64,000 nt of DNA from Okamejei kenojei (taxonomy: Eukaryota). Location: positions 16,492,001 through 16,556,000 of the forward strand of contig CM069131.1 in the NCBI GenBank assembly GCA_035221665.1, in the 5' to 3' direction. Numbering within the stretch: position 1 is the first letter of the stretch; every line of letters begins with the position of its first letter. This document shows positions 19,451-63,400 of this stretch, in pieces. The notes beneath the pieces are model-generated. The model saw only the letters and a program-made list of their open reading frames with translations, was not told where the DNA came from and searched no databases. The translations under genes were made by a program, and so were the position numbers.

Positions 19451-20812
19451 CAATGAATCAAATATAGTATAATGTGGAGAATATGAAGTTGTCCACTGTG
19501 GAATGAAGCATGATGACATTTATTGTCATTTAAATGGAGAAAGACTATAGAAAGCTGACGTAGTAATGGATTTCGGTTCCTCACACGTGACACATGGAAG
19601 TGGCATACATGTGCAGCAATTGTGAAAAGGGCAAAGAGATTGCTGGCTTTAATTTTGAGGGCGGGGGGGAAGGGGGGCAAAATATAAAAGCGGGGATGAC
19701 TTACAACACTGTGCAAGGCAGCAGTGAGGCACTTATCTGAGACATCAAGAGGACTGTGAATAATCCTGGTCCTCTTTTTAAGGAAATAATTATTACAATA
19801 GACCATAGCCAATAGACAATAGGTCCCTTCGAACTAGCACCTCCATTCAATGTGATCATGGCTGATCATCCACAATCAGTACCCCAATCCTGCCTTCTCC
19901 CCATATCCCCTGACTCCGCTATCTTTACCATTGGAGGCTGTTGAGCGAAGGTTCATTGGGTTTACCCTGGGCATGGAGGGATTGAATTACGAGGGAAAGT
20001 TGAGGAGGTTAGGTCTGTAGTAAGTAATTTTCAGAACCGTGAGAAACAATCTTCTTGAGAAATATTGCATCCTTAGGAAGCTTGCCAGAGTAAGTGCTGG
20101 GAAGATGCTTCTGCTTAGGTCCAGCGAATAAAGACTATGAGTATGAGAGTGTCCATTTCAAACTGAGAAAAGGAAACATTACTTCTCTCAAAGAATTATG
20201 CATTTTTACAATTCCTTGCCTCAAAAGGCCATGGAGGCCGTACCATTTTATGTATTCAGAGCTGAGAGAGGTGGAGGAATTAAGAGTTACTGACTAAGGA
20301 CGTGAAAGCAGATGAGGAAAACCAGCTCTGATCTCTGTGGGTCAGGAGGCAGCATCTGTGGAGAGAAGTGGACCTTCTCCAGAAATCATCACCAATCATT
20401 CACCTCACAACCACTTCAACTATCCCCCAAATCCCTCTCAGTCCCAGCGCTCTGTCCCTCTGCACTCAAATCAGGAAGATTAAATCCTATAATCCCTCAC
20501 ATTTAAACAACTTCCATGAAATGCTCTTTGAACAGTCCATTTCCTTCCACAAATGCCGACTGATCCGCTGAGTTCCTCCAGCACTTTGTTCTTTTGCTCA
20601 AGACCAGCATCAATAGTCTCTGTGTCTCCATCAGCCATAACCTGTTGGAGCAAACTCAAAGTGGTGAATGGCTTCCCCCGTCTTTATTTCTTATAATCTC
20701 AAAATGACACTGATCCAGCCCCAACATCATGTTCTCGTCCAACCCAACTTCTTATTCATGGCACATCCATGCCAAAAGCAAATTTGGTAAAAATACTTTG
20801 ACAAAATGTTGA

Positions 20813-21418: not shown

Positions 21419-21842
21419 CAGGTACCTGTGGAATCTATGGTAGCGACCTCGAGCATCTGTGTGGAAAGCAGTGTGTTCCCTTGGAGTGTCTGCCACTGAG
21501 ACATGCAATGGATAAGTCTGGGGAATTGCAATATGGACCTGGATCCTCCAGTGTGCTGCTCATGCAGCTGGTCAACTTCTCCAGCTGTGTTGCCAACCGC
21601 ACACAAACTGCCCCAAGCCATTTACAATGCCCACAGCAACACCTGATGCTCAGAAACTATTGTCTTTTTAATGAATAACACTGAGTAACAAATTCTTAGC
21701 TTCTTCCTCCACAGATGATAATGCCTTCCTCCTTGTGTGCCATCAACAGTTGCTGACGCGTAATCATCTACTTGGTATCTTCCAGTCTGCTCCCGAAATG
21801 TATATCTCTCAGTTCATACATGCCAGGCATGGAAGGGATGTA

Positions 21843-22050
21843 AAACACAAAGTGCAGGAGTAACTCAGTGGGTCAGGCAGCATCTGCGGAGGGAATAGAC
21901 AGGAAACATTTCGGGTCAGGAGCTTTCTTTAGATCCTACCCGAAACCTTGCCTGTCTGTTCCCTCCACAGATCTTGCCTGACCCACGGAGTTACTTCAGC
22001 ACATTGTGTTTCACTCAAGAATCCAGCATCTGCAGTTCATTGTGTCTCAT
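21843..22050. repeat. Degenerate palindromic Penelope-LTR-derived repeat
   Basis: Arm agtaactcagtgggtcaggcagcatctgcggaggga mirrors tccctccacagatcttgcctgacccacggagttact. Confidence 0.75.
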
Positions 22051-22950
22051 GGAAGGAGTGCAGATGTGCTGGTTAATAAGGACTTCATCTTCCAGAATTG
22101 AGAGCAGAGGGACTGGTTGCTGAGACTGAGAGGAAAATGAGTGATGGAAGTGTGGGGTGGAGAGTGATCAGTGATGATTTTTTAAAATGACTTCCTGAGG
22201 AGATCGTATCTCTGTTTCATTAATAATATCATCAATATACCATAGGAGGTGCCCCCCCTCCCCCCTTCTTAGTTTATGTAGATTGGTTTATGCATGAAAG
22301 GCATGAATTATAGATTAGTTTAGTTTAGCCCATCAAGTCTGCGCCAACCAGTGATCACCCGTACGCTAGTTCTGTCCTACACACTAGGGATAATTTACAG
22401 AAGTCAATTAATCTACAAACCTGTATTTCTTTGGAATGTGGGAGGAAACTCCATTCAGACAGCACCCGTAGTCAGGATCGAACCCGGGTCTCTGCTTCTG
22501 GAAGGCAGCAACTCCACAGCTGTGCCACAGTGCCACCACACCACACATTAAGTGAATATCTGGGAAAGTCCTGTATTTGGGCTTAACCTACATAGCTGTG
22601 CCTCTCCAAGGTATTGAGGAATGCCTTCTGTGGACATGGCCAGTGTAGATTGCTGTATTGCTTTTGATACCATGCAACACCCTCTGTAGAGTGGTGTCTA
22701 GAGCCAATTTGGCAGCTATCTGATGATCCACTGGAGCACAAGTAGTGGTAAGCCGACGTGAGTGACTTAATGCATGCTGCGATGTCAGCTAGTAAAGAGT
22801 GTACCATGGCTGTTTCTATAGGTGTGCTGATCTACAGGGCTGCCCCATTCTCCTCCATCCTCCTTGCTGTTAAGTTCATTCTTTCTAACAAGATCCCAAA
22901 TGCCTCTTTATGTAACCTGGCCTGTGAACGTCCTCATTTGAATTTTTTGA

Positions 22951-23073
22951 AGAAGGAACTGCAGATGCTGGAGAATCGAAGGTACACAAAAAGCTGGAGA
23001 AACTCAGCGGGTGCAGCAGCATCTAAGGAGCGAAGGAGATAGGCGACGTTTCGGGTCGAGACCCTTCTTCAGA
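22951..23073 (-). mobile_element. Solo hammerhead-bearing Penelope-LTR unit with a long TSD
   Basis: The minus strand starts gtCTGAAGAagggtctcgacccGAAAcGTC. It is flanked by the direct repeat acgtcctcatttgaat at 22928-22943 and 23073-23088. Confidence 0.8.
23041..23073 (-). ncRNA. Minimal hammerhead ribozyme motif (intact core)
   Basis: CUGAAGA, extra A, stem II GGGUC-UC-GACCC, GAAA, CGUC cleavage triplet. Confidence 0.65.
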
Positions 23074-23884
23074 CGTCCTCATTTGAATCTTTGAGGCAGA
23101 ATCTATGCATCCTCTGAAATTGATTCTTGAACTGTTTTCAGGGGAAGGTTCAGGCGAGGGGAAGAACATTAAGTAGAAAGGGCCATGCAAGGATGAAAAT
23201 GCCATGTGAAATGGATGATAACTAAAGTGAAAGGAATTGAGAGGTGATCTCCAATTTGGAGTGCATCCCTACCAATAGAATCAGAGTATAAAAAGATAGG
23301 AAAAATCTGAAATCAAAGGCTCTTTGTTTATATACACAGAATTCAACTGCTGTCCCTTGTGTCTACAAACAGTATGAAACAGTATGATCTGAGAAAGGGA
23401 CTTGGTTACAAGGTGATGAGGCTTGGACCTGAAAATTGCAGAGTACTTAATATTTTTAAAAAAAACACTCAGCTGGAGGAACTCAGCTGGCCAGTGCTGA
23501 GGAAGGATCTCGACCCGAAATATCGACTATTCATCTCCCTCCCCAGATGCTGCCTGATCCGCTGTGTTTCTGGAGCAGATTGTTTTTTTGTTGCTCAAGG
23601 TTCCAGCATCTGCAGCCTCTTGTCCCTTACCTAACATTTCAGGATAGGTAGAAAGCAAAACAAAAGTCAGGTAGCTCCATTATTGAAGGATGAGGTTGGT
23701 ATAGTATAAATGATCTAGAGGATGAAATGTAGAATCAGTTTAAGTGGAGGTAAATATAAATGAAAATAAATCACTTGTGGAAGTGGTCTGCATGTCCCAT
23801 TAATATAGTTACTGAATAGGACAGAGTATAAATCAATAAATAGCATGAACGTGGGTGGAATTTTACTGTAATTGCCATATAGTG

Positions 23885-25323: not shown

Positions 25324-26475
25324 CACCTCAGTCCGCACCGACAAGCGATCACACATATACTAGTTCTATCCTACACATTAGGGACAATTTACAGAAGCCA
25401 ATTAACCTACAAACCTGCATGTCTTTGTGGTATGGGAGGAAACCGGCGCACCTGAAGAAAGCCCACATGGTCACATGGAGAACGTGTAAACCTCATACAG
25501 ATAGCTCCCGCAATCAGGATTGAACCCAGGTCACTAGTACTGTTAAACCCCTGTCTCACGGTGCGAGTTGACCCACGAGTGACCCAGAGTTGTCACTCGC
25601 GGTAATCACATACACTAAACGTAGCGGGAACGTCGGAACTCTTGCGAGCAACTTAGCAACTCGTGGCGCTAACGGCAGGTACCCGTGAAACTTGGTAACT
25701 CGTGAAAAAAATCAAACATGTTTGATTTTTTCCACGAGTCAAATTTACAGTTCAAGTTAAAAATTGAAACATTTTAAACTCGTTTATAACGTGGACCTTA
25801 GTGATTCAGTCTACCGTGGGAACTCTTTTAACTCAGCGGCAGGCAGCATCTCTGAGAGAAGGAATGGGTGACGGGATGACATTTCCAAATTTCTCCAGCC
25901 CCATGTGTTCACTTTTTTTCAAACCAGCATCTGCCCTTTCTTGTGTATGACATTATTTGTATCTACAGTGCCTTGAATTCATGATTCACACACACACAAT
26001 GCTGGGGTAACTCTCACACACACACACACACACACAATGCTGGGGTAACTCACACACACACAATGCAACTCACAGCTGGATTAACTCACACACACACACA
26101 CGAACAATGCTGGAGTAACTCTCGCACACACACAATTCTGGAGTAACTCAGCGGGACAGGCACATCTCCGGAGAGAAGGAATGAGATGTCTCGGGTTGAG
26201 ACCCTTCCTTAGACCATTACCCAGAGATGCTGCCTGTCCCGCTGAGTTACTCCAGCATTTTGTCTATCTTTAAACCAGCATCTGGACTTTCCCCCACATA
26301 ATAACCAATGAGATTCCCCGAGTCCTCATTGTTCCCCTCTCTGTCTTCCCCAGACCTATGTATATGTATATGTGTATATGTATATATACTTTGCGTGGTT
26401 CCTGGGTTGCCTACTGCTGGGTAACTCCGCGAAATATCATCCCCCTGTATTTCAAATCTAAATCTCTCGCCAATA

Positions 26476-26633: not shown

Positions 26634-26779
26634 NNNNNNNNNNNNNNNNNNNNNNNNNNNNNNNNNNNNNNNNNNNNNNNNNNNNNNNNNNNNNNNNNNN
26701 NNNNNNNNNNNNNNNNNNNNNNNNNNNNNNNNNNNNNNNNNNNNNNNNNNNNNNNNNNNNNNNNNNNNNNNNNNNNNNN
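26634..26779. other. Assembly gap (146 N)
   Basis: Run of N; the same 43-bp sequence occurs on both sides. Confidence 0.99.
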
Positions 26780-28199
26780 CGCTCAAAGTCAGTCACCCGA
26801 GCTGCTTCCTTCCTCGGAAGTGGCCCAGTTTCTGCTGTCCGTGCCCGAGCGCGCGGCAGCCACCCAAGCTAATTCACTCACTGACCACAATAAAACCATA
26901 TAGCAATGGCATCTCTGCCCTTTTACTCCGTGCCGTTTACTGTCACCTAGTCCCATCTACCTGCACTCAGACTGTAGCGTGGCAAGTGGTTACTGACCCT
27001 AATCCCCTCCTTCACAACGCCAGACTCCCCAAATACTATGAACTGAGCTCTCCCCACCTCAGGAAATACAGTATTTAAAAACATAAAGCACCAAGAAATG
27101 CACTTATCACGTTATTGGTTGGTGGAGGGTGCGCATTTTCCCTTTGTAGGTCGTATCAATAGATGCGGCCCGCGCTGAAATAACTCAAAGCCACAGGATG
27201 GAGATGTCTTTTAACATTGTTGCTTTATTAAAACATACCTTAATTCACGGTTGGCTCAAGAGTAACGGGAGAGAACTCTCGGAGGAGGAACTTGGAACAT
27301 CGCAGAAATGACATACCTGTGGGAACTTTAAACACTTGACATAAACTTGAAGTCTCGTACATTCTTTCACTCGGGGTACCTCGTAGGTCAACTCGCACCG
27401 TGAGACAGGGCCATAAGGTAGCGACTCTACCGGTGCACCACAGTGCCACCCTTAGAATGCATTGTCCCTGGAATGCATGCACCCTGGAATGCTGTGCCAG
27501 GAGTAGCGGTGGAGGCAGATTTGAGTGTAACATTTAAGAGGCTTTTAGACAGGCACATTGTTATTCAGAGGGTGGAGGGATATGGATCATGTGCACGCAG
27601 ATGAGATTAGTTTGTCTTTGCCTCGTGTTCCTGTCCTGTACTGTTCTATATTTTATAATAACAAACAGTTAAGAGCTTCTACAAGTACACAACAAGAGAA
27701 TAACTGAAGCTAATGTTGGGATTCTAAAGGATAAGATTAGAGGAATTAATAATAGCAAATAAGATCCCAATAATACTAGAAAATACACAGTAAAAAGGGA
27801 GAAGAAGGAAATGGCAGACTTTGAACAAATATCCTTGTGACAGAAAATTAAAAACATCCTAATAATACTGGAAAATACATGAGAAAAATAGGGGTGGAGG
27901 ATATTTAAAACAATCATAATTCTTCCAAACAAATTAGTGGAGCTCAAGGCCAAAAAAGTATCCTTGAACATGATGCCTTCAAGGAATGAGTACGGAGATA
28001 GTGGATGCATTGGGTGTTGTCTTTCAACATTCCATAGATTCTAGAAAGGTCCAAACCGATTGGAACATCCACCCAAGAAAAGATGAGGGAAAAAAATAAT
28101 CATTGGGATAATCGTTGGATCCTTTACGAAGGATGTACTAGGAGGATATTTAGAAAATTGTGACAATAATCAGGGCAGAGTCAGCAAGGTTTCATGATG

Positions 28200-28503
28200 A
28201 ATATTGATTTCTCTAACTTCAAGTAACCCCTGCATTCCCTCTCTCCGTCCCTCCCCCACCCATGTCGCACCAGCTTCTCGTTTTCACTTAGCAAACAGGT
28301 AACAATGGCCCGTTTCCTTTATCATGGTTACTTTTTGCATATCTTTCAATCATATCTCTCTACATCACCACTTCTATCTCTCATGTCCCTTTCCCCTGAC
28401 TCTCAGTCTGAAGAAGGGTCTCAACCCAAAACGTCACCTATTCTTTTCCTCCGGAGATGCTGCCTGACCCCCTGAGTTACTCCAGCTTTTTGTGTCTATC
28501 TTC
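28200..28503 (+). mobile_element. Penelope-like 3' end/pseudo-LTR with a decayed hammerhead core, inserted in an old CR1
   Basis: NIDFSNFK C-terminus, then a pyrimidine-rich UTR, then agtCTGAAGAagggtctcaacccAAAAcGTC. Confidence 0.8.
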
Positions 28504-30272: not shown

Positions 30273-33200
30273 TGTGGGGAAATCAAAAAGTTGTCACAGA
30301 GCCGGTTGATTCACACTGAGCGGAACACTTCACAAACCCGCCAAATACCCTTTGCCCTCAGTCAGGGTCACCTGGATGTCTCCCCACTATACCTCAGAGC
30401 TATTTCCCAGCACTAGTGAATGTGCGGAAATCTTTTGAACTCATCTTTGAATGAAGGCAATGTCTGAACCATGTAGGTCAGAGAATTTCAAAAGGTGCAC
30501 CACCCTTTTGATTGGTGAAATTTCTCTTCATCTTTGTCCCAAAAAACCTAGCCTCTAATCTTAATGTGTGACCCCTGATCTTCAACTTTTCAGTCAGGGG
30601 AAATATCCTTCCTCCATCCAGCTCTTGAAAATTGTGAAAGGATTCAGATCTCCACTCATTCCCCTAGATTCTAAAAATACATATGCAGCTTATTCAATCT
30701 CTCCTCTTATGGCAAATCTGCCGTCACTGGAAGGGGTTTAGTGAATATTCTCTGCACTCTCTCTATATTAATTAGATAAGGAGACAAAACTGTACATCCT
30801 CCAGATGCTGACTCACTAAGACCCAATACAATTGCATTACATCCGCCTATCTCTTCTAATCAAATTATTTTAATAAAAGCTAAAATGCCTCCAAATCACT
30901 TGCCCTACTTGCACGGCGGTCTTTGATGACATGTGTACCCAGATCCCTTTGAACATCAACACTGCCTAATCCCTTACTGTTGAATAAATACTCAGTCTTG
31001 TAGAAACAATGAACTGCAGATGCTGGTTTGTACCTAAGATAGACACAAAGTATTGGAGTAACTCAGCAGGTCAGGCAATATTATCCATCCTTTTTCTCTA
31101 GGGATGCTGCCTGATCCACTGAGTTACTCCAACACGTTGTGTCTATCTTAAATATTCAGTCTTTCTGTCTAGTACACCAAAGTGGATGACCACACATATT
31201 TGCACATTATATTCCATTTGCCATTCCCTCCACCTCCGCTTCAGTTTGTCCAGATCCCTTTGAAGCCTATACACTTTCACATTCATAATCCAGATTTAGT
31301 ATCATCAGCAAAATTGGAAAAATGATGTTTCATCATCCCCCTCAGGCAAATTACTGATGTAGCCTGTAAATAGCGAGGGCCCCTACACACCCAAGAAGGA
31401 TCTGTTTATTCCCATTATTTGCTTTCTGTCCAATACCTAATTCACTAAACTAACATAGAACAGTACAGCACAAGAACAGGTCCGTAATCTCTGTGCTGAA
31501 CAAGGTGTGATGATAAACTAATCTCCTCTGCCTGCACGTGATATACATGTTCCCCCATTCTCTGCATATCCATGTGCCTATCTAAATCCTTTTAAATTCT
31601 ACTACTGTGTCTGGCTCCATCACCATCCCTGGCAGTGTCTTCCAGGCACCCACCACCCTCCATGTAAATAATTTGTCTCTCCCCCCCCCCCCCCCTCCCA
31701 TCTCCTTTAAACTTTGCTCCTCTCACCTTAAAACTATGCCCTCTAGTCTTTGACTTTTACACCCCTGGAAAAGCCTCTGACCTTATCTACCATCCATCTT
31801 AATTGTGCCTCTCATAATTGTATATACTTCTATCAAGTCTCCCCTCAACCTTTGACATTGCAAAGAAAACAATCCAATTTGAGGATGAGTCCCAGCCTGA
31901 AACACCATCTGTCCATTTTTCTCCACAGATGCAACGCAAGTTCCTTCAGCCGTTTATTTTTTGCTGCTCAATTCTATTGTTCCTTTTTGTTATCACATCC
32001 TTCAATATGTAGTCCAGCATTTTCCTTGACACTGATGTTTGGCTAACAAGTCAGTAGTTCCTTGTTTTCTCTTTCCCTCCTTACTTAAATATTGGAGTTA
32101 TATTTGCTACTCTCCGATCCACAGGAGCAGTTCTAGAATCCACGATGTTAACCAGAGCATTCACTTTCAAATATTCGGGATATAGATCATCAGGTTCTTG
32201 GTTTTCATCATCTTTCAATCTTACCCATCTCTCTGGTATTTTTCTTTTGATTTATTTATTTTGGTTCCTTTTTCTCCTTCTCTAATATATTTGGCAGGAT
32301 TTGTGTGCTTTCTATGAAAACAAAGTAAAGATGTTTTTTTTCTGAAATATAGCTGACTTCTGATGGATCTTAACAAGATAATTAGTGCAGGATTGTTTCT
32401 CCCTCTGGAGGCATTTACTATTAGTGAGCTTGTTTTCAGAATAACAGTCTGTCTATTTAAGAATAAGAACACAAGAAAAAAGAAGCAACAATAGCCGTCT
32501 GGCCTCTGCATCCAACATGATCATGGCTGTTCTGCCCCAGACCACATTTCCTCCTTTGGGTCAGCTCCTCATATCATCTCATGCCATTAAGGGACTTGGA
32601 CAGGTACATGGATAGGAAAGGTTTGAAGAATATGGGCCACACATGGGCAAATGGTACTAGTTTGGATGAGGCATCATTGTTGGCATGGACGAGTTGGGCC
32701 GAGTGGCCTGTTTCCGTGATGTATGATGCTATGATTCTATTCGAGGGAGATGCTTGAACCCACTGTGCTCGTCTCTTCTTGGGATCTTCTGTCTTAGAGT
32801 TGGGCTTGTGATACCCATGAACTTCATCCTCCCCATGCTTATTTTTTGTATTTTCAGGAACTTTTAAAGATCAGGACAATGGAAGAATTTAAGCAGACTT
32901 CTTTTGCAGTATTTGCCGCAAAGCAAATCAAAACATTTTACATTAATAAGTTAGAGAAACATTAGATTCCCTGCCCCCAAGGTGACTGCAAATGGTTCAG
33001 CAAAGAATTTGAGTTTTTCAATATCTCCCAACTAAGTTTTGAGTATTGTTGTCCAAATGGATACAGACATTTCCCTATTTTGTTAGAGAAAACATCTGAT
33101 GGCAGGTGGAAATATGACTATATAGAATGCAGTTGTCTTTGGAAAAGTTTCAGATTAGTCTGAAACAACATGACTTTCTCAGTGAGGTCAGAAACAAGTT

Positions 33201-38817: not shown

Positions 38818-38903
<86 letters not shown>
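38818..38903. repeat. Poly-C run (86 nt)
   Basis: Read directly; the length is probably unreliable. Confidence 0.9.
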
Positions 38904-38934
38904 ATCCCCATAATTTCCAGACTCATACCAGTAC

Positions 38935-39470
38935 CAGACAAGGAGAGGAGTGAAATGTGAAGCCACAGGGAGGGACATAGGTGGAAAGGTTCAGGGTGGG
39001 GGAGTAGGGGTGTGATGGAATTATTACTTCAAATTGGATAATTCAATATTCCTACCGTTGGGTTGTAAGCTAGCCAGCAAAATATGAGATGCTGTTCGTC
39101 CAGTTTGTATGTAGTCTCAAGATGGCAATGGAGGAGGCCCAGCTCAGAAACAATGTTATGTGAATGGCAGACTAAGCACAAATGTATTCGGTGAAATGGT
39201 TGCCCAGTCTATGTTTGATCTCGTCTACATATATATCAGCCCACATCAGGAGCGCTGAATACAATAGAGGAGGCTGGAAGACGTGCTGGTGAACCTCTAT
39301 CTCATCTGGGACGGTTGCTGTGATCCCTGGATGGAGGTAAGGGAGGAGGTGTAGGGACAGGTGTTATATCTCCTGCGGTTGTAGTGGAAAGTACCGGAAG
39401 CACCGGGGATTGGGCAGGTTGAGTGGGAAGCGAGGAGTGAACCAAGGAGGTGGTCTCGGTGGGAACAGGA
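38935..39470 (-). mobile_element. Old Penelope-like fragment (GIY-YIG region and 3' UTR)
   Basis: Similar to 44123-44560 (ttgtaagctagccagcaaaatatgagatgctgttc). Confidence 0.7.
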
Positions 39471-43200: not shown

Positions 43201-43516
43201 ATGAAGTATGTGACTGGAGAAGAAGTGATTTTGGAGTTTGAGAATAAAATTTGTAAAAAAAGTAAAACAGATACAACACGAGTAGCAAACAGTGAGGTGG
43301 AAAGCAATGGGAAAGATCTAAAATAGCACTCATCAGGGACCTGTAAAATGTATTCTAATTAAATTGAAAGCACTGTAGTGTCACTAAAGATGAATAAAGG
43401 GACAAAATTGAAAATTCAACAAAGACCATCTGCTAGGCAGATGGATGTTGGGGAAGAAAATGGAAAGGTAGTAGGAGGGAAGTGGCTTATGTTTGCAGAA
43501 CAGTAGTCCAGTACAT

Positions 43517-43945
43517 AGACACAAAATACTGGAGTAACTCAGCGGGGACAGGCAGCATATCTGGAGAGAAGGAGTGGGTGACGTTTTGGGTCGAGACCCT
43601 TCTTCAGACTGTATCAGGGGACGGGGAGACTAGTGATATAGAAGGGTAAGGAGTGAAAACACCAGATCAAAGCAGATGATAAGGAAATGTTCATTGTTAA
43701 CTGAGGGGAAAGTGACAAAGAGGTATGCAATCAGAAAAATGAATCAGGAGGACACTGAAACTAGTCGGAGAACTAGGGAGGGGGAGCAACGGAGAGAGAA
43801 GGAAAACAAGGGTAACTTGAAGTTAGGGAAATCAATGTTCATATTGCTGGCTGTAAACTACCCAAGTGAAATATGAGGTGCTATTCCTCCAATTTGTGTT
43901 GGGCCTCATTCATACAGTGGAGGAGCCCCAGGACAGAAAGGTCAG
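43517..43945 (-). mobile_element. Penelope-like 3' end/pseudo-LTR copy in tandem with the next element
   Basis: Same sequence order as 44035-44370; the hammerhead GAAA has decayed to AAAA. Confidence 0.8.
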
Positions 43946-44034
43946 TACAGCTTGCTTAGGCTGTCCTCAAGGTACAGCATGTGTGACCAGAACTTTTTGA
44001 CTGGTAGGCATATTTATCTGAGACGGCTTCAACT

Positions 44035-45220
44035 GAAGACACAAAATACCGGAGTAACTCAGCGGGTCAGGCAGCATCTCTGGAGAGAAGGAATGGGTGA
44101 CGTTTCGGGTCGAGACCCTTCTTCAGACTGGTGTCAGGGGAGGGGGAGGGACAAAGATAGAACGTAGTCGGAGATAGTAAGACTGCTGGGAGAACTGGGA
44201 AGGGGGAGGGGATAGAGAGAGAGAAAGCAAGGGATATCTGAAGTTAGAGAAGTCAATGTTCATACCGCTGGGGTGTAAATTACCCAGGCTAAATATGAGG
44301 TGCTGTTCCTCCAATTTGCGCTGAGCCTCACTCAGACGATGGAGGAGGCCCAGGACAGAAAGGTCAGATTGGGAATAGGAGGGGAAATTGAAGTGCTGAG
44401 CCACCGGGAAATCAGGTAGGTTAAGACGGACTGAGCGGAGGTGTTCAGCGAAATGATCGCTGAGCCTGCGCTTGGTCTCACCGTTGTAAAGAAGTTGACA
44501 CCTGGAACAGCGGATACAGTAGATGAGGTTGGAGGAGGTGCAAGTGGAAATTACCTGGGGGGGGGGGGGGGTGGGAAGGGACGAGTTGACCAGGGAGTTT
44601 CGGTGGGAACAGTCTCTGCGGAAAGCAGAAAGGGGTGGAGATGGGAAGATGTGGCCAGTAATGGGAACCCGTTGGAGCTGGCAAAAATGTTGGAGGATTT
44701 TATGCTCTATGCGACGGCTCATGTGGTGGAAGATGAGGACAAGGGGGACTGTCCTTGTTGTGAATGGGGGGAGGAGCAAGAGCGGAGCTGCAGGATATCG
44801 AGCAGACCCTAGTGAGAGCCTCATCTATAATGGAAGAGGGGAACCCCCGTTTCCTAAAGAATGAGGACATCTCCAATGCCCTGGTATGGACCTCATCCTG
44901 GGCACAGATGCGGCGTAGACAGAGGAATTGGAAGTAGGGGATAGGGGAACAGGAAGCAGGGTGGGAAGAGGTGTAGTCAAGATAGCAATGGGAGTCAGTA
45001 GGTTTTTAGTAGATGTCGGTCAATAGTCTGGAGACGGTGAGATCTAGAAATGATAGGGAGATGTCGGAGATGGTTCATGTGAATTTGAATGCAGGATGGA
45101 AATTAGTGGTGAAGTTGATGAAGTCAGTGAGTTCTGCATGGGTGCAGGAGGTAGCACCAACACAGTCGTCAATGTAGCGGAGGTAGAGTTCGGGGATAGG
45201 GCCAGTGTACGCCTGGAACA
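44035..45220 (-). mobile_element. Penelope-like retroelement, 5'-truncated (end of RT, GIY-YIG endonuclease, pseudo-LTR)
   Basis: LRYIDDCVG on the minus strand near 45165-45182. GIY-YIG-like CTSSNLIYCIRCSRCQLLYNGETKRRLSDHFAEH in ORF 44123-44824. Confidence 0.9.
44095..44129 (-). ncRNA. Minimal hammerhead ribozyme motif (intact core) in a Penelope pseudo-LTR
   Basis: agtCTGAAGAaGGGTCtcGACCCGAAAcGTCaccc. Confidence 0.7.
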
Positions 45221-45722: not shown

Positions 45723-46555
45723 GAGTAGCGTAAACCAAAATAGCCCAACAATCAGTTACTTTATTGCTAAAAACAGAGCAAATTGTACAATTGTAAATTC
45801 CAGACACAAGGAACAGCAGATTCTGAAACCTTGACCACAACACAAAGGGCTGGAGGAACTCAGCTGACAGAGAGCATCTGTGGAGGGAATGAACAGACAA
45901 CATTTCAGGTCAGGAGACTTCTGACTCCTTGTAAAATCTAAAGAAGGGTCCTGACCCGAAATATCATCTGTCAAAAACAATCATATGGATGGTTTATGGT
46001 TCCATTAAATTGATGTAAATTTTCAAGTAAGTTTAAATGACCTTTGAAGAAGGCCAATAATTGCTATGAAGAAAGTTGACTGGAAGTTAAATTATCTAAG
46101 TTATGGTTATCAGTAGTGCATCTTTTTATATTATGTTGCCAGTGATCCAATGACCAGATTTACATTCTGATACAAGATCAGAATCTGCGGATCCTCATTT
46201 CTATAATTTGCTGAGTTTGCAATTTCCTTTCGACTTCTAACTATGCAATATTGCACCTTCTAAGCTTTTGGCATGAAAATTGAATGTTTTATACATTAAG
46301 TGGTTCAAGAGTGTTTGCAAGGGCATTCTGATTAGTTTCTTGATATGAAGTTTGCAGGAAATAAATGCCATTGTTTATTACAATTACTTTAAACATACTT
46401 TGCTCAATATTTGTATAGTCTCCAAAAAGAAATTGTTCTAAATAAAACTCATAATTTGCAAGAAATTTAACGTATTTATTAGATTTTTCAAGAAAATATC
46501 CTAAAACGTGCTCAAATTTGTAAAAAGGAGCTAAAAGGTAGTTACGTCTCCTTAA

Positions 46556-47020: not shown

Positions 47021-47317
47021 GTCGCTGAAACAAGGTGCAAAAAGGTTTGCACTTCGAAATCTGACCTGAGATCCAATGACTTCAGCATTGTTGGAAGCTT
47101 GCCCCGTGACTTTGAATTGTCCAACTATGACTGCTATGGAAAACCTATTCAGGTTAACAACGGCCTTGGGAAGCTTCAGTTAAAAAATAATAAGAAGCCT
47201 CCACCTCCAAAACCTGTCATCCCAACTGAAGCGAAGCGGATCGACCTCTATGCAAGAGCTTTGTTTCCATTCTGTTTCCTTTTTTTTAATGTTATATACT
47301 GGTCTGCATATCTATGA
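47021..47317 (+). CDS. glrb: Glycine receptor beta subunit, terminal coding exon (gephyrin-binding motif, proline-rich motif, M4); equivalent to mammalian exon 10
   Basis: TAG acceptor at 47018-47020, phase 0. Encodes [42 protein letters not shown]...[11 protein letters not shown]...[25 protein letters not shown]. The gephyrin motif [13 protein letters not shown] is at 47081-47119. Confidence 0.98.
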
Positions 47318-48050
47318 ACATTCCATTATAATTTTCATCGCATGAGAAATATCAGATAACAATGACTAATTTCTCAGAAACTCTCAAGTACAATTTTAGT
47401 TTCATTCTAAATGTTGGCGATTAAAAATTGATTTGCAACCAGATGAATTTATGTTAAATTTGAATGAAAGCACGAAATTGCAATGCATATATACTAACCA
47501 AACAATGCTGTATGTTGCTGTACAGCACCCAAGCTGCTTTGAAGTTCATAAAGGAATGAACTACATTGTACTGTTCCTCCTATTCTAAGAATAACATGTT
47601 TATGATATTGTGATAGACTATCTAAGCTGTGTTGCAAATCTAACAATACTTTTATATAGATTATATATTATATATATATATAAAAGCACGCTTAATGTTT
47701 CTAAAATATAACTTTTTGTGTGTAATATTGAAAATGTGACATCCTTTAAGTTGTAAATGGAGTTTGCTTTGTCTCGAAATCATGTTCCCAGAATAAATCC
47801 CTCCAGTTTTGATCAGAAGTGAGTTGTAGTGCATTACCATTTGTAAATGAGAAAAGAAAAGTATAAACTTCATTTGATGTTTAAATCGGCAAGTATATTG
47901 AGATTCTGTATTGCTAAACTAAATATAAAATGTATATCAGTAATGGCTTTTGTTTTAACAATGAATAATATAATAAATTTATATCATATATACAACTACA
48001 GCAATATCTGTGTGAAATCAAATAAAATGTTTGGATGGTATTATTGGATG
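47318..48050 (+). terminator. glrb 3' UTR with candidate polyadenylation signals
   Basis: AT-rich and repeat-free. AATAAA at 47792, 47972 and 48021 (the last followed by GT-rich sequence), with another at 48293. The true 3' end is unknown. Confidence 0.55.
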
Positions 48051-48584
48051 AATTAAATCCTTATGGTAGACACTATAGAGAAGTAAATTAATCCAAACAA
48101 ATTGCATCCGTAATACTTCTATTTCATACATCAACAAAAATATTAGCTACAGTATAATGTACTTGCACCGTACAACAGATAACCACCTTGTATTTATTGT
48201 GCACAGTACAGGCCACACACAGGGTATACAAATGCAAAGTGCTGGAAAATATAATATTGCAATAATCCATCCAAAATATAGATACTTTGTATAATAAATA
48301 TGATTTGTTCCAGCACTTCCACACTTTGGACTAAATTATTCAGATCACGCTTTGAAGGAATTATAGTTTTTGATACCACATTATCAAAAGAACACTATTA
48401 TTGTGTAGTTCCCAGGGTATAATTGAGCATATATATGTGGTTAGACACAAAATGCTGCAGCATTTTGTGTCTACCTTCGATTTAAACCAGCATCTGCAGT
48501 TCTTTCATACACATATATATACGTGGTTGTTACAATGGACACCAAGGCCACCAGGGAAGGCGTGGGATGGCAGAAGTTGACTTG

Positions 48585-49445: not shown

Positions 49446-50174
49446 TGCAGTTATACAGATTTTGAGCTTCAAACTGCACCAACCACTGAATCCAGGAGAA
49501 GTGAATGAATGGGCAAAGTTAAACATGCTAAATAGAAGAACATATCTGGCAGATTTAGCATATCTAAAAACTCTTGACCCTAGTTGTAATATTGGCTTTG
49601 GGCCAGTTGATCATCCATAGCCCATAGAATAGAGAAGGACATGCTGAGGGCAGCACCAGACATACTTCCGAGAGATGAGATGGCAGCCTAGTCATGCTCA
49701 AATATGGGACTATGTCGAACATCAGCAAGAGAGCAAGAGCGAAGCGATCTCACTTCTACCGGATCAGATCAAAGTTCTACTGTCCCACCACATCTGGCAT
49801 TGATTGGTAATAAAACAGGTAATAAGAGGAGGAGTCTCCAAGAATACCAACATCAGTCAGCCTGTACCTTCCCCTCTTTTGTACACTCATCTCCCATCCT
49901 GGAGATCCCTATTTCCTTTTAATCCATCCTCTTTTCCCCTCCTCCCTGCCACCTTCTCCCTTCCACCCATACCCCTCCCTTGGCTTTCACTCCTACTCTT
50001 CTCCCCTTACCAGACACCCTTTTGTCTCCTTTTTACCTCTAGCCTTTGTCACTTTTACCACCATCTGGCAATCAAACCTCCCTCTGCTATGTCCACCCAA
50101 CACTTGCCAGACTTTGTCGCTCTTGCACTTCTCCTTTCCAGCTTTCTCTTTCCTACTCCAATCAGTCTAAAGAA

Positions 50175-50488
50175 GGGCCACACAGTGGCATAGTGGTTGA
50201 GTTGTTGCCTTCCAGCGCCAGAGTCCCGGGTTTGATCCTGATTATGGGTGCCGCCCGGTTGGGATTTGTACGTTCTCCCAGTGACTGTGGGTTTTCTCCG
50301 GGTGCTCCGGTTTCCTCCCACACTCCAAAGATGTACAGGTTTGTAAGTTAATTGGCTTTGGTAAAATTCTGAATTGTCCCAAGTGTGTGTAGGATGGTGT
50401 TAGTGTACAGGGTGATTGCCGGCACGGACGTGGTGCGTCCAAGGGGCTTGTTTCCACACTGTATCTCTAAAGTCTCAAAGTCTAAAGT
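50175..50488 (+). mobile_element. V-SINE/HE1-like SINE inserted into a Penelope pseudo-LTR (~49900-50580)
   Basis: Full SINE that splits gtctaaagaaggg | gtcccgacccgag. Confidence 0.85.
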
Positions 50489-51630: not shown

Positions 51631-51952
51631 TTGAAACCCAAGTTAGACAAAAAAGCCGGAGTAACTCAGCGGGTCAGGCAGCATCTCAGGAAAAAAAGAA
51701 TAGGTGACGTTTCGGGTGGAGACCCTTCTTCAGAGTGAGAGTCGGGGAAACCTATTTGATCTCATATTCACTAAGATAGCTACTAACGTCATGGACTGGC
51801 ACATCCCTTATTTCACTATTACCAGTCAGCCAGTGAACTATCGTGGTTCAGTAAGAAATGAAGAAGAGCATAGGCGGTGTCAGGCACAATAAGCACTGAG
51901 GTAGCAACTTGCTGAACCTACAACATAGGAGCAGCTGCATGCTAAAGAGTGG

Positions 51953-52500
51953 AAGATAGACACAAAATGCTGGAATAACTCAGCAAGACAGGAAGCATCT
52001 CTGGAGAGAAGGAATGGGTGACGTTTCGGGTCGAGACCCTTCTTCAGACTGAGAGTCTGGGGAAAGAGAAACGAGAGATATAGACAATGATATAGAGAGA
52101 TATGGAACAAATGAATGAAAGATGTGCAAAAAAGTAACAATTATAAAAAAAAACAGGCCATTGTTAGCTGTGGGCTAGGTGAAAACGCGTTACAGACAAT
52201 GAAACTCACCAGGGCGACAGTGAAAGAGAGCTCGAGTGGGCGAGAGAGACGGGGAGAGAGGGGATACAAGGCTTACTTGAAGTTAGAGAAATCAATTTCT
52301 ATACCACTGGGTTGCAAGCTGCCCAAGCGAGATATGAGGTGCTGTTCCTCCAATTTGAGTTTGGCCTCACTCTGACAATGGAGGAAGCGCAGGACAGAAA
52401 GGTCAGTGTGGGAATGGGAAGGGGAATTAAAGTGTTTGGCAACCAGGAGATCACGTAAGCCCAGGCGGACTGAACGAAGGAGTTCAGTGAAACGATCGCC
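51953..52500 (-). mobile_element. Penelope-like 3' fragment with pseudo-LTR; intact hammerhead core at 52016-52050
   Basis: Encodes KHFNSPSHSHTDLSVL...KLEEQHLISRLGSLQPSGIEIDFSNFK and contains agtCTGAAGAagggtctcgacccGAAAcGTCaccc on the minus strand. Confidence 0.87.
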
Positions 52501-55121
52501 CAGCACGAAACGCACACCTTCCCAGCTATTATCAGGCAACTGAACCATCCTACAAACAACGAGAGAACAGTCCTGAGCTACTGTCTACCTCATTGGAGAC
52601 CCTCAAACTATCTTTGATTGCACTTCATTGGACTTGATCTTGCACTAAACTTTATTCACATTATTCCCTTTATCATGTATCTGTACACTGCGGATGGCTC
52701 GATTGTAATCATATGTTACAGTTTAGTTTATTGTCACATGTACCGAGCTACAGTGAAAAGTTTTTTGCCGTGTGCTAACCAGTCAGCAGAAAGACACTAC
52801 ATGATTACAATTGAGCCATTTACAGTGTACAGAGCAAGATAAGGGAACAACGTTTAGTGTAAGGTAAAGCCAGCAACGTCCAATCAAGGATAGTCCGAGG
52901 TTCCAACAAAAGCTTTTGACTATACCTCGGTATACGTGACAATAAACTATAATCATACTTGTCACAATCCCTGCCTGACACATATGTCCTTCAATATTTG
53001 ACCAATTGAGTCAGAGTTTGCTTTGTCAGGAGCAGCTTGGCAGCAGCACCTATCCTCGCCCTGAGCTCATTCTGCGCCCTTGCTACTTTCAGCGTTCCTT
53101 CCAAGTGTGTTCAACACGGAGGAGAAGCACTGATTTATCAGCTGATGGATGATAGATGGTAATCAGGAAAACGTTTCTTTACACTTGTTTGACCTTGTGC
53201 CATGAGACTTCAATAGGATCTGGTTTCAATGTTGAAGATTCCACGAGTTACTCTTCCCAGCCTATGCCACCATCTCTGGTTGTTCTATTGTGCTAGTGGG
53301 CCAGAATGTGCAGAAGGATTGTGATAGAGGAGTCTGGCACATTGCCTGTAAAGTATGATTCTGTGAGTACAACTATATTGGGACTTTGTTTGCCAGGTCC
53401 ATGGGAAATTTATGCACCAGTCCCTAAATATCTGTGTGAACTTTGCAAGGTTCACTGAACTGAGACCAACATTATCAAGTCACAATTCAGTGCCTAGGTT
53501 GATCCCAGATGCCTGGCTGGCTTTATTCTTGCTCTATTTGAGCATAGCAAGAACAGCCTGAAGAATAGTCTCAGCCCGAAACATCATCCATTCCTTCTCT
53601 CCAGAGATGCTGCCTGTCCCGCTGAATTACTCCAGTGTTTTGTGTCTATCTGAGGTGCCTCCCATGTCATTTCAGTGGGCATTAATCACACAGGTGGGTC
53701 TGGAGTCACATGTAGGCCAGTCCAGGTCATGATGAAAGTAAACCAAATGTATCTTTACAACAAACTGATTATTTATGTGATCATCATTTCGATGATTATT
53801 TAAATTCCACGTTATTAACTGAATTTAAGTACTAAACCAGTTAGATGGGATTTGAACTCCGGTCTCTAGATCTCTGGTCCTAGTGTTTGGACTGCTAGCC
53901 TGAAAATTAACAGCCAACACCAGAACCGTAGTCTATTTGTGTCCTTGTCTGATGCCCAGAGAAATGTAGGGTGGTCCATCCAATTTTAACTGGAATATTG
54001 TGTTGTAGGGATCTGGGGTAGATGTTGTTCTATAATGTTGCTTGTATCATGGCTGCTTGAGTTGTGTTCTGCTGTATATGTAAGCATCTACGTTACAGTA
54101 GAGTTAATAATGAAGAACCCTTGACCTGTTGGCAGCCTTTGACCTCTCATGGTTGCTCAAATACCAGGTGCATGGTAACCTCTGCAGAATTAAGGAATTG
54201 TGAACGCTACCATAATAACTGGCATTGAGCTTCCCGGGGGTGGAATTCTGAGGTGATCACGAGTATTTAACGCATGGGCGAACACGCACTTCGGAAAGCC
54301 CATATTCTTTTTTGCTGCTTGTCGGAGAGAATGAGATTGTTTTTATCTGTGTGTAGAGAGTCCCGGTGACCTTTATGTAGCAGTGTGTATAGAAATATGA
54401 AATATTCCTCATATCTCCAGCAGCAGCTTGGGAAAAAAACCATATTGGTTTATAAATGACAATTAACTTGTTCAGAAATTACATTGCTGTCAATAAATCA
54501 GTTTTGTGCACTGATTACTTCCATGAAATCATGGCGCTGCATGCCGACAGGAGTTGTTGGGTGCAATTCCTCTCTCTGACATTGTGCACAAGCATCTTGG
54601 ACATTATTGCCATCAAACTGCGGAAGGATGACAGGTTTAGCATAACACTAACTTGCAAGCAGAACAAAAAAAAAAGCCCATTTCTGTCCTATTTACCAGG
54701 GAACCTGACGAAATAATATCAAGAAATTTCCTTCCATTCAAAGGGTTTAGACGTTGCTGTGGCGGTTCAGAAACTGGCTCCATGAACACTTTGGTCATGA
54801 TTGGAACTCTCACAAACTCTTACAGAGAGCCACCTTTTACAGGACTTTCTTTTTCACATTGCCCCTTCATATTTGACTTGCACCGCACCAATGTTTCTGG
54901 TTAGTAATCGTGTGTGGATGGGCACATTATGGCCTGCTCCTGTGCTGCACTGTTCCAGGAGTGTCAGTATCAATGCACCTCGAATTGTGATCTGCTCTTC
55001 TTGTGAGCATGTATCCTGGAGTGGAGTTAATAATGAATGTAATCGACATGGTCATGCAGTTTGGCAAGGTGGGTCCATTTTTCTTGGTTATCATATCGGT
55101 GGTTAAAACTGTACATTGACC

Positions 55122-55257
55122 AGACAAAATGTGTAGGAAGGAACTGCAGATGCTGGTTAGTCTGAAGAAGGGTCTCGACCCAAAACTTCACCCATTCCTT
55201 CTCTCCAGACATGCTGCCTGTCTCGTTGTGTTACTCCAGCATTTTGCGTCTATCTTC
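55122..55257 (+). repeat. Penelope-LTR-derived unit with a decayed hammerhead core
   Basis: agtCTGAAGAagggtctcgacccAAAActtcaccc. Confidence 0.75.
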
Positions 55258-55554
55258 TGTGCAGTGAGCCTTATGCAAGAAGGCATTACCCCAGACAGGG
55301 CTCCTATGTTTCCCACAAAATTGTGAACTGCTATGACTTTAACATTCACTGGCAATACTGGTGCCGTTGCTCAGCATAACTGCTCATTCCAAGCAAAGTA
55401 ATCAGCTGCAGCTTCCGCAGTGCTTAGTTATGTTGTCCACCTGCCCAGGTGAAAGGCTTTGGCTAATAAAACAATCCTTGCAGCAATGTGAATGTGGGTG
55501 TAAGAACTTCCAGTTTGAAGCCTGCAGAATTTCAAATCCTTAATCAAATGATCA

Positions 55555-58180: not shown

Positions 58181-59246
58181 CAGTTTCTATATTAAGTGGA
58201 AGATACTGAGGTAAGCAGATGGAACAGTTCCATTTTGCAGATTTATATGTGCATTGCACAAAGTACCCTTGGATAATAATTTGTCCATTTACTGCTGGTC
58301 CATGAAGTAACACAGAATGGTTGAGACACCCAACACATCTGGCCGTATCTGTAGAATGAAAAGCAGAGTTAAGGTTTCAGGTTGATGATCATCTTCAACC
58401 GTTCATCAGAAGAAACCCTGAACATTAACTCTGTTTCTCTCTCCACAGATATTAACTGGCTTTAATGCATTTTCTGTTTTATTTTAGATTTGCAACATCT
58501 GTGGTATTTAGCTTTGGGATTAAGCTTGCCTGTGCTGAAACCTATCAGGCCTTTACTGCTAATCAGGCATATTCTGCAAGAACTCTGAAAACAGCAACTT
58601 AAAATAAAAACCTTGATATATTTACTTCTTCAGACGTAAGAGCTCTACAACGTAATTCAGCTAAGTGAAGCCTGCTGGTGTAATGGCACTTAAGACAAGT
58701 TGCAGATTCAGCACATTTGTTACTGTGGCTTTTTTTTGCAACTTAAACTATGTCAACACTGCTTCATTTCTAAGATGACAAATCTGCTAATTCAAGCCAA
58801 CTGCCTGAACTAAATTAATATTGTAGTTACTTGTCCAGAGAGGCTTTAGGTAAAGTCTGCAGGTGCAGAAATTTAAATCTCACCAGTGGAATTAAGTGCA
58901 ATTAATAACATAACTTTGGATTAACAAGTAGAGGTTTATAAATTCTATGGTAAACATTTTTACGTGTGAGGTGAATATTTTGTACAAAGCCTGATCCAGA
59001 ATGTCACTCCAGGAATCCCAAGTACATGTGTAGACATCGTTGGTACACAGACCAACAGCAAATTGTATATAACATTTGTTATGGAATTTCTTTCTCGAAA
59101 TTCTACTACATACACAAAGCTTTCAAGCAGCACAACCTAACTAAAGAAGTTTTCAATCGAGGTAGTGGAACCTGGTTTAATGTTATTTTCAGGGTCAAAG
59201 TCTACCTGGTGAGCTTCTGGTACCTGAGGCCTTCATCTGACTCTAA

Positions 59247-60465: not shown

Positions 60466-63400
60466 TTTTACTTCGGAGTCACGTGAGTGACTACGTGAAG
60501 AACCCCGTACAGCCGTTTGTGCGTCATTGCGTCAGACGCTTTTGTGCAGACGACTGTGGAGCAGCGCGGCTCCTCCAACGGTAAGTCTAAAAAAGTTTCA
60601 GGTAAGTTCTATTTCTTACCCGTTCTAGGCTTCCGTCAGGAACCTCCGGGGTTCTTGCGGGATGGTCGCGAGGCCGATGAGTGAACCAGCCTAGGGCTTT
60701 GGGGGAAACCCTGGCCCGACCGCGGGAGCGGGGAGCTGGCGAATGTCAGGTTTGCGATCGCAGTCACTGATAACGCGGTCAGTGACTCCACATGTTGGTT
60801 CCCGGGGAGGGGATACCCGAGAATAGCCTGGGTTCCCGGTGGAGGGGAAACTCAAGTGTTTGCGGTTCCCAGACCGCAGTAGTCCCCAGAAAATGGGGTT
60901 TAATTCACGTAAATGAGTAGCCCGGGTGCCCGGGGATTGATTCCCGGGGAGGGGAAATTCACTTATGGGGTTCCCTAACCACAATAATCCCCAGGATATG
61001 GGGACAGCTGCCAAAATAGTCAGAGTAATTAAGAAAGATTTGATAGGTTCACCTCTGGGAATGAATTTAGAGAAACTCCTTTCGGCAGGAGGTGGATCAG
61101 TAGTAAAGTTTATGGCAATGACAGCCTATGGCAGAGGCTGAGCCAGCAGCACCTTTGTGAAGGGCTGCATCATGGGGATGCCAAGCTATGGCAGGCTAGC
61201 CTATGGGAAAGGTTGTGCCAGCAGCACCTTTATTCAAGGACTGCTCATGGGGATGCCAAGCTATGGCAGTCTAGCCTATTGGAGAGGCTGCCAGCAGTAC
61301 CTTTGCTCAGGACTGCTCACGGGGATGCTAAGCTATGGCAGGCTAGCCTATTGGAGAGGCTGTGCCAGCAGCACCTTTGCTCAGGGCTGCTTCATGAGAA
61401 CACCAAATCTATGGCAAATACTGGCCTATGGGAAAGGCCGCGCCAGTAGCACCTTTGTTCAGGGCTGCTTTATGGGCGCCAGCGGTACTTTCTTCAGGGC
61501 TGCTTTATGGGAATAGCTGTTTAGTAGGGTATTCCCATTTACAGTGATCATGGGGGATGAGGGGTCATTGTTAGGATAAGGCAATATAACAGAATCTGTT
61601 ACGTCTTAAACTATATTTGAGAAATTGGGCTCCTCCATCCAGCTAGATTAAGTCTATCAAATAGATGTTGGTATTCAATTGGCTGTGATGCCGGCCTGGG
61701 CAATAGATGGCAGTCAATAAATTCTGGTAACAGGTTTACTAGTTGTTAGATTAATTGTTAATAGTATAGATGTGATTCAGCTGTGCAAGTAAGACAACTT
61801 ATCTTGTTAAATGGTTAACTATTAAGTGCCTTATAAGTCATTGTTAACACACCTTGTTTCTCCAGGTGAAATTAATAAAGTCACAAGGATGGACAAACAA
61901 TATTCATTACTGCTCCAGTTGTTGTTAAGTAAATCTTTAATTATATTACAAAATGGTGCTAATGGCCCTAAATAGGAAATTGTGTCAGCAGTGCTTTTTA
62001 GTAGGCCTGCTTAAGGTCTCCCTCATGTAGGAGGAGAGCATGCTGCGTCAGTATTATTCTGACGCTGGGGCCATGGCAAAGTCGGCGTATTGCTGAAGCT
62101 GTGCCAGCAGCACCTTGTAACAGGGCTGCTTAATGGCTCCCTCATGTAAGAGGAGAGCATGTGGGATCGGTATAGTCTAATGCCGAGTCTGAGGGTATAG
62201 CCATAGAGCATGCCCAAGGGATTCAGGGCATATGCCCAGAGGTCTATGCCTGGCCAGAAAGTTACCATCCCAAACACATATGCAGTGAATACCGCTCTAA
62301 GGGGGACATTACAATTGGCCGTTGAATCTTCTATTCAGGTAAGACCTTTCCATAGGTGAAACCTGGAGGACAAAGCACAAGCTATTGGAATGAGCAAGGT
62401 TTCATAGTTTTGGTGATAATGCACCCCACGTCTTTATTGGCAGTAAGCGGTTCACTGAAGTTGGTGAAGGCTGAAGGCTGGCCAGAGGTTCCACGCACTG
62501 TACCTGTGCTACTCTACAATTAAGGGACCACTTACAGCTTGGTAAGGTGTACACTTAGTTATACATTACAAATGATTGAGACATTATCAGCTAATTTGAG
62601 GGGTCTAATCATGTAAAATGGTCGGTTCTAGCTTTTCAAGCAGGTTAGAATTGCGCAGGTTCAGTAGAAGGACCAAGATTGTCTTACAAGACTGGTTCGG
62701 AAATTGGGCCACAGTTGCTGTTTACGGCAGATACCAAGTTGCAAATATCATCTTGAGTTTGGAAATGGAGCAGATTTGCATGATTTGCAAAAAATGTCTG
62801 TTGTGGGTATCAACTATCTATAGACCCTACGGGCATCGTATGGGTTAAAGAGTGATTGGACAAATGTGCATATTGTGATGCTCAGGTTGATATATTATGA
62901 TGATGGCATATGTTAGTCACGAGGGTGCAATCAGTAAAAGACTGATGGAATGGTTACATATCTTGTTGTCACAGGAGAATCATCAAGTATAGGTTAATAT
63001 CAACACAGAATTGGTGTTGAATTACACTATATTATGAAATTCTGGTTAATGGAACACCTAACATGATTCATGTTTATTTCACTGGTTGCAAAATATGTGG
63101 CATTACAGTGGCGAAACGTACATTTTCGCTAAAAGGAGTAGGAAGGACTTATATGGCTCCCTCCATTTTGTTTTTCAATTGAGGGTTCAAATAAAGTAAT
63201 TAAGAGGCCGCTTAAGGTTCCTATTGAGTGATTATGCAAATTGATTCCTGATTTGTCGCGAATAATATAACCTTATTTGGTTATTTTAAACGTAATTTGC
63301 TGGTTCAGCCTGAGGCTTGGGAAATCAGTTGGTGCATGATAAACTCAAATTATGTTCTGCAGGTTTAATAAACTGCCCTAAGGTTTGGATTGTTACATCT

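Follow-up and report, generated by a model that had tools for sequence, protein, structure and literature searches.

A putative minimal hammerhead ribozyme in the pseudo-LTR ends of Penelope-like elements dispersed across the glrb locus of the skate Okamejei kenojei

The 64-kb window of skate DNA analyzed here (the whole stretch of 64,000 nucleotides) is populated by a short repeat whose copies we read as the pseudo-LTR ends of an endonuclease-bearing Penelope-like element (PLE) family, each of which would carry a minimal type I hammerhead. The sequence supports this assignment of the repeat, and cleavage by it is a prediction. We consider it fairly probable that cleavage depends on dimers in the tandem RNA of master elements, where it would be slow and probably assisted by protein, and that the dispersed copies are inert.

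Three intact cores had been claimed in a first-pass annotation of this DNA, and all three match the 28-nt motif at 28/28 positions on the minus strand (23045-23072, 44099-44126, and 52020-52047). With up to three mismatches allowed, the motif has eight matches in the window and none in 100 shuffles, and a looser core pattern has 16 matches against 5.9 expected. A descriptor of the minimal hammerhead (core letters, helix II of at least 4 bp, palindromic 15.2/16.2, NUH, and helix I of at least 2 bp) is positive at 19325, 23072, 44126, and 52047, all minus, and in none of 100 Markov-2 resamples of the window. ACGU and GUC occur in all four of these copies. The scan with hammerhead models that had been suggested earlier gave a divided answer: the descriptor returned these four matches, and Rfam, searched up to E 10 with the whole window and with 43480-44200, returned no hammerhead. 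The near-intact and decayed copies reported earlier were all recovered in place, and the one at 50167 is interrupted inside helix II. Further core-spanning copies, absent from the first-pass annotation, lie at 852-, 860+, 15862-, 19323+, 21932-, 26212-, 31879+, 45926-, 45938+, 50479+, and 58398-.

The exact core at 44099-44126 (minus strand, 28/28) runs from C3 at 44126 to C17 at 44099. The minus strand from 44128 to 44097 reads GU (the helix I 5' strand), CUGAAGA, an extra A, helix II, GAAA, CG, UC, and AC. Helix II (44118-44107) forms 4 bp with a 4-nt loop; the stem-loop proposed earlier as GGGTC-TC-GACCC stands as a stem-loop, and its 5 bp with a 2-nt loop do not. On steric grounds, helix II is unlikely to be closed by only 2 nt. 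The self-complementary stem III given earlier as AACGU is a palindrome, one base shorter (ACGU, 15.1-16.1; 44103-44100). Helix I (44097-44128, minus strand) has only 2 bp, U2.1(44127)-A1.1(44098) and G2.2(44128)-C1.2(44097), and the predicted cut falls between 44099 and 44098, after GUC. Because the ACGU palindrome has no loop, helix III could be formed only between two copies. The core fits the published description of minimal type I hammerheads in PLEs, so the likeness to a hammerhead core and the dimer requirement proposed earlier both agree with the structure and with that source (PMC4209133).

The core at 44126 lies in the 3' repeat of a remnant with RT and GIY-YIG domains at approximately 44037-45220. 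This Penelope-like remnant had been recognized earlier and is real; it is 5'-truncated and dead. The short pseudo-LTR unit common to all copies (44037-44131, minus strand) has YCAGT at its 5' edge, followed by the hammerhead and approximately 62 nt to the usual 3' end. A GIY-YIG endonuclease (EN) remnant (44240-44545, minus strand) has a CxxC and two His, and the linker zinc finger is deleted in this copy. Skate proteins match it at 73-78%, Atlas places it with GIY-YIG clusters (score 0.96), and its Pfam GIY-YIG match (E 0.078) is below the cut-off. The RT remnant (44712-45220, minus strand) is 5'-truncated, has a YIDD motif and thumb, and carries stops and frameshifts. Four batoid proteins share 62-70% identity with it and one shark protein 59%, which suggests a skate or ray origin for the DNA; Pfam has no match to the RT remnant of the window, and its relative P0018 carries RVT_1 (E 1e-5). 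An old EN remnant with no hammerhead end (39026-39470, minus strand) keeps the linker region, in which two of the three zinc-finger Cys are Tyr compared with relatives P0001 and P0003. P0001-P0003 and P0018 are named NCBI skate gene models that fuse the EN or RT of this PLE with host sequence of unrelated kind, either by exonisation or by mis-annotation.

In the window, RT is followed by a C-terminal GIY-YIG EN, as in EN+ PLEs. The CX2-5CxxC linker between RT and EN has been described for Neptune PLEs (PMC8557442). Judged by its sequence, this family of skates and rays is probably an endonuclease-bearing member of the Neptune clade, an assignment that is likely rather than proven: the linker is deleted at approximately 44550 and decayed at approximately 39380, and the skate relatives P0001 and P0003 keep it intact. 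A search of solved structures found nothing. The copies in the window are 5'-truncated only, none being full-length, and they show 5'-truncated inverted head-to-head pairs, target-site duplications, and an optional tail. Inverted 5'-truncated copies, duplications, and an optional tail have been described as PLE features (PMC8557442).

A profile search gave 32 matches in the window (best reversed-window E 1.5). BLAST with eight window copies as queries gave 37 segments, or 4.8% of the 64-kb window, and its reversed control gave one match (E 0.002). Six rows with 17/28 matching positions (6649, 15069, 16571, 16657, 58660, and 59701) were absent from the profile search and were therefore dropped as chance matches, of which 2-8 are expected. 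Target-site duplications of 9-20 bp were found at six of 26 loci examined; the duplication search had no chance control, and four duplications of 6-7 bp were not relied on. The optional tail extends approximately 37 nt past the usual end (e.g., at 19323+, 23072-, 26221+, and 48455+) and is inverted at 55130.

Minus-strand copies include a solo unit that has an exact core and tail and starts at C3 (22948-23072), flanked by a 20-bp duplication with one mismatch (22928-22947 and 23073-23092). A second 5'-truncated copy in the same orientation as the 44126 copy (43515-43945) has a core at 43580-43607 with G12A, 519 nt from the 44126 core. Downstream of glrb, a 5'-truncated copy at 51955-52500 comprises the EN end, the 3' UTR, and the exact core at 52020-52047. 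The near-intact core at 51706-51733 (within 51640-51750, minus strand) has a loop change and G2.2C, which leaves 1 bp of helix I, and lies 314 nt from the 52047 core. On the plus strand, which is sense for glrb, a solo unit (15456-15551) has the core letters, a helix II mismatch, and a 15.2/16.2 that is not palindromic; a unit with a tail and a short inverted arm (23492-23621) has the core letters, a helix II mismatch, and no helix I; and a 5'-truncated copy (28197-28503) has its core at 28408 with G12A. Also on the plus strand and downstream of glrb are a solo unit with a broken helix II (53554-53651) and a unit at 55162 with G12A that follows an inverted tail (55130-55260). The copy at 50143-50177 (plus strand) is interrupted inside helix II by another insertion, a different repeat at 50178-50450 that is presumably SINE-like. 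An older decayed relative in inverted arrangement occupies 58310-58470, and its 3' flank starts with AAC, not ACC.

Other features of the window include many CR1-like fragments, an N gap (26634-26779), and G/C homopolymer tracts at 13205-13270 and approximately 38820-38935, the first of which gives spurious miRNA-family matches. Repeated translation patterns at 16488-16900 and 61033-61513 suggest tandem repeats. Long ORF pieces with endonuclease and RT lie on the plus strand at 3235-6645 within a glrb intron and resemble an L1-type ORF2.

The last coding exon of glrb (47021-47317, plus strand; glycine receptor beta, E 1e-59) establishes which strand is sense and where the last intron lies, and further glrb exons lie at approximately 2600-2755 and 9600-9930 (plus strand). 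The glrb stop codon is at 47315-47317 and the first poly(A) signals are at 47792-48293, so the copies at 50167, 51733, 52047, 53558, and 55162, which lie downstream of both, are probably outside the transcript. Intron strand counts, made with the six 17/28 rows left out and 852- added, gave nine antisense and seven sense core-spanning copies (p 0.80). Three of nine antisense and none of seven sense copies are descriptor-positive (p 0.21). Exact cores number 2/9 against 0/7 (p 0.48), and complete core letters 3/9 against 2/7 (p 1.0). In all seven sense copies the core, helix II, or helix I is broken, and the antisense copies are not ribozymes within glrb pre-mRNA. The suggestion that intact cores are antisense to glrb and sense copies decayed stands in part: the exact cores are all on the minus strand, and the strand bias is not significant (p 0.21-1.0), the 52047 copy lying outside glrb. 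A self-cleaving system in glrb pre-mRNA, also suggested earlier, is not borne out, since none of the seven sense copies is descriptor-positive and survival of intact copies equals the neutral expectation.

Inverted insertions are frequent at this locus. Six lie in glrb introns and form hairpins of -48 to -122 kcal/mol: head-to-head pairs at 758-948 (decayed; 13-bp duplication), 19238-19457, 21842-22047 (decayed; 9-bp duplication), 26128-26298 (with a decayed core at 26212-), and 45802-45972 (decayed; older subfamily), and a pair without a core at 31005-31149 (15-bp duplication). The 19238-19457 pair, a long hairpin with a 10-bp duplication, joins the descriptor-positive 19325- to a decayed 19323+ with a tail. 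A very short inverted pair at 48442-48513 consists of the 3' end and tail and has a 14-bp duplication. Adjoining the 26128-26298 insertion, three short pieces of the unit 3' end lie inside a TG microsatellite (25993-26121). When inverted regions were folded, eight of 10 gave hairpins with z <= -3. The pairs in glrb introns are possible editing substrates, and an effect on glrb is likelier to come from double-stranded intronic hairpins formed by inverted pairs than from self-cleavage.

Conservation of the core relative to the flanking sequence had been set earlier as a test of the hammerhead. The alignment holds 20 core-spanning copies (852-, 21936+, 50167+, 58398-, and core-less fragments were left out), in subfamily groups that were assigned by eye and roughly matched by a tree; of three groups, one is a single copy. 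The core came through this test, as none of 10 non-CpG core columns varies across subfamilies and 18 of 57 columns in the flanks do (one-sided p 0.033). The comparison is weak because two blocks of the flanks vary no more than the core. Subfamilies share all 11 catalytic letters, the extra base, G10.1-C11.1, and the palindrome. Position 1.1 changes from A to G between subfamilies with pairing to U2.1 retained, and the 15.2 change of the older group is expected to give U-G pairs in a dimer. Within subfamilies the excess of core conservation was not significant (4/110 core against 54/624 flank, p 0.08; 10/75 against 74/398, p 0.33), and the pooled within-subfamily p of 0.0003 mixes in differences between subfamilies. 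In helix II, 85% of cells pair among the 20 copies, with no two-sided change. RNAalifold found no consensus pair in the 20 copies. The covariation score was matched by 10 of 500 shuffles, and in truncated copies the 2.x bases may derive from the host.

In the young subfamily A, two of 11 copies are exact and six of 11 have all core letters; the divergence of the flanks, taken copy by copy, predicts 2.11 and 5.68. CpG sites mutate approximately three times faster. G12, the general base of the hammerhead (PMC6155905), lies in a CpG and is lost in four of 11 young copies. Decay of the inserted copies is neutral and CpG-driven. Selection probably acted on master elements, not on inserted copies.

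The ends of the insertions indicate what was copied. Seven of the 37 segments extend well upstream into the 3' UTR. Among the other 30, all short, 14 start at -9 to 0 of C3 and only two at +24 to +32, near the cut site (+28), which points to templates that were mostly uncleaved RNA; five of the segments are the BLAST queries themselves. With inverted pairs counted once, 11 of 18 events end at the ribozyme 5' edge (p ~0.0004, under a naive uniform null). The end of the 23072 copy is fixed independently by its 20-bp duplication, which abuts C3. In the anole PLE, RT is described as starting internally, downstream of the hammerhead, with uncleaved RNA as the main template, and hammerhead cleavage as needing protein and being dispensable for insertion (PMC11167929). 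A small hairpin near the unit 3' end (44048-44063, minus strand, and equivalents) keeps its arms, and its loop base differs between subfamilies; by analogy with the anole element, it is a candidate RT binding or start site.

A YCAGT-like word stands upstream of C3 in the eight copies examined that reach that far, with CAG in seven of eight. The word fits an initiator, a 3' splice site of the kind present in D. virilis, or a fold-back palindrome, TCAG-T-CTGA. The first of these readings uses the initiator consensus, and a rotifer pLTR is described as carrying an initiator-like TCACT. Splicing-activated helix I, which would use a YAG that follows a pyrimidine tract like the one ending the D. virilis intron, is disfavoured because no upstream exon is common to the solo copies and the duplication of the 23072 copy lies directly against C3. 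We infer that an initiator at the ribozyme edge would explain solo copies best. A tentative extension, which we hold as possible though doubtful, is that the skate PLE makes a short RNA starting at an initiator in the helix I strand (A2.3 = +1), and that this RNA, 95-130 nt long and uncleaved, has multiplied to very high numbers in the manner of a SINE-like mini-element. If so, the initiator within the helix I strand would account for the shortness of helix I (2 bp) and also for the clustering of 5' ends at the ribozyme edge. Three exact cores per 64 kb would then extrapolate, from one window, to the order of 100,000 in a skate genome that we take to be 2 Gb. The family would be among the largest vertebrate ribozyme reservoirs, with power to test in vivo cutting through intron orientation.

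Folding predictions bear on how the motif could act. Helix I has a pairing probability of <=0.005 in monomers (18 folds of six copies). The active dimer lies 13-34 kcal/mol above the minimum, and calibration gave a gap of 11.8 kcal/mol even with a helix I of 3-6 bp. Since helix I length thus explains little of the gap, it was not counted as inactivity. In the energy model, a 2-bp helix I costs approximately 4 kcal/mol more than one of 3-6 bp. An evolved off-switch, in which the 3' flank pairs with the core in monomer folds, was rejected, as the real flanks did no better than shuffled flanks in 10/10 copies (fraction 0.15-0.77). Two same-strand pairs, 44126/43607 (519 nt) and 52047/51733 (314 nt), each place an exact core upstream of a damaged one and could form half-active dimers on minus-strand RNA. 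The regions concerned (43515-44128 and 51640-52050) are the only sites with easy cis-dimer geometry, and only on RNA antisense to or downstream of glrb.

In the mechanism that we favour, a master tandem transcript, which is assumed, would bring two cores together; these would pair ACGU with ACGU, build helix III, and cut each other after GUC. Cutting would be slow and, with a helix I of just 2 bp, would probably depend on assistance from the protein of the element. Selection for dimer cleavage in master elements would keep the core letters. Uncleaved RNA would be the template for most RT, which would start 60-100 nt downstream of the cut site and run to the ribozyme 5' edge, yielding solo or fold-back insertions of 95-130 bp. 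Once inserted, copies would stand alone, be antisense or mutated, or be trapped in inverted hairpins, and glrb pre-mRNA would not be cut. An unlikely alternative is that the hammerhead is vestigial even in masters, helix I having shrunk and the letters being kept by an overlapping promoter or protein-binding site. The uncleaved templates, the energetic cost of the short helix, and the word kept upstream of C3 are all compatible with this, and the U-A plus G-C helix of the skate compares poorly with published 2-bp examples of helix I, which all have two G-C pairs (PMC4209133). Naiad PLEs, moreover, are described as proliferating without hammerheads (PMC8557442). Retention of the catalytic letters, extra base, G10.1-C11.1, and palindrome across subfamilies nevertheless argues for the ribozyme, as do the pairing-compatible changes at 1.1 and 15.2, and the D. 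virilis hammerhead, also with a 2-bp helix I, showed some cleavage in an extended form (PMC4209133).

That dispersed copies form an active self-cleaving system in host transcripts, with intact sense copies purged from introns, seems quite improbable. In its favour, all four descriptor matches are minus-strand, intact copies are absent among those sense to glrb, half-active dimers could arise on minus-strand RNA, and retrozyme copies are reported as depleted in Xenopus introns (bioRxiv 10.64898/2026.07.22.740005). However, the strand differences are within chance, overall orientation is balanced, decay is neutral, the exact copy outside glrb is likewise minus, and monomers lack helix III. The same Xenopus source describes eight of nine dimers as uncut in vitro (bioRxiv 10.64898/2026.07.22.740005), and the anole study reports no RNA-seq ends at the cut site (PMC11167929). 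Chance likeness in a purine-rich repeat would accord with the Rfam result and with the absence of a consensus fold, and is scarcely credible given that the resamples held no descriptor match and that the motif sits where PLE hammerheads are known to lie. Dimer-dependent cleavage in master elements remains our preferred reading. The family is dense enough for the in vivo role of PLE hammerheads to be tested from genomes alone, by the intron orientation of intact cores and by whether insertions end at the cut site or the 5' edge. The window already suggests uncleaved templates and neutral decay.

Our literature search found neither the skate family nor 5' ends located at the edge of the ribozyme described; Repbase and Dfam were outside its scope. 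Lunse and colleagues, in 2017, reportedly treated PLE hammerhead dimers and may have covered cartilaginous fish. PLE minimal hammerheads, dispersed single copies, and opposite-strand pairs have been published since 2014 (Cervera and de la Pena, 2014; PMC4209133). The skate motif resembles those described there in CUGANGA with an extra base, G10.1-C11.1, GAAA, NUH, and a palindromic 15.2/16.2 without loop 3, and also in occurring mostly as scattered single copies, opposite-strand pairs, and 3'-only copies in truncated PLEs. Its 4-bp helix II and 2-bp helix I with U-A are together weaker than in all 56 examples listed, which include no cartilaginous fish; helix I is 2 bp in six of the 56, counted by eye (PMC4209133). 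The 2-bp helix of the skate, like that of D. virilis, is at the lower limit of the published range and still supplies a closing helix. If the window is typical, the density is far above the approximately 4,000 copies in coelacanth and 9,000 in Xenopus reported in the same source (PMC4209133).

The anole Poseidon element PAc, as described by Frangieh et al. (2024; PMC11167929), likewise has a hammerhead in the pseudo-LTR upstream of internal RT starts, an optional tail of 30-40 bp, and an uncleaved RNA template. In contrast to the skate family, it belongs to the Penelope/Poseidon clade, and its ORF starts in helix II, whereas all three frames of the skate unit close within the unit or tail. Neptune PLEs, in the account of Craig et al. 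(2021; PMC8557442), share with the skate family RT followed by GIY-YIG EN, 5' truncation, inverted copies, a tail, and the CX2-5CxxC linker as seen in the skate relatives, and differ from the window copies in that the latter have the linker deleted or decayed. Non-LTR retrozymes are similar in being non-coding, PLE-derived, and equipped with a type I hammerhead, and hammerhead-bearing examples are reported in one chondrichthyan (bioRxiv 10.64898/2026.07.22.740005). Identity with them was rejected, as the window has no head-to-tail arrays and its nearest same-strand cores, 314 and 519 nt apart, are separated by unrelated spacers. Non-LTR retrozymes are described as head-to-tail arrays (bioRxiv 10.64898/2026.07.22.740005), whereas the skate copies are monomers and head-to-head pairs.
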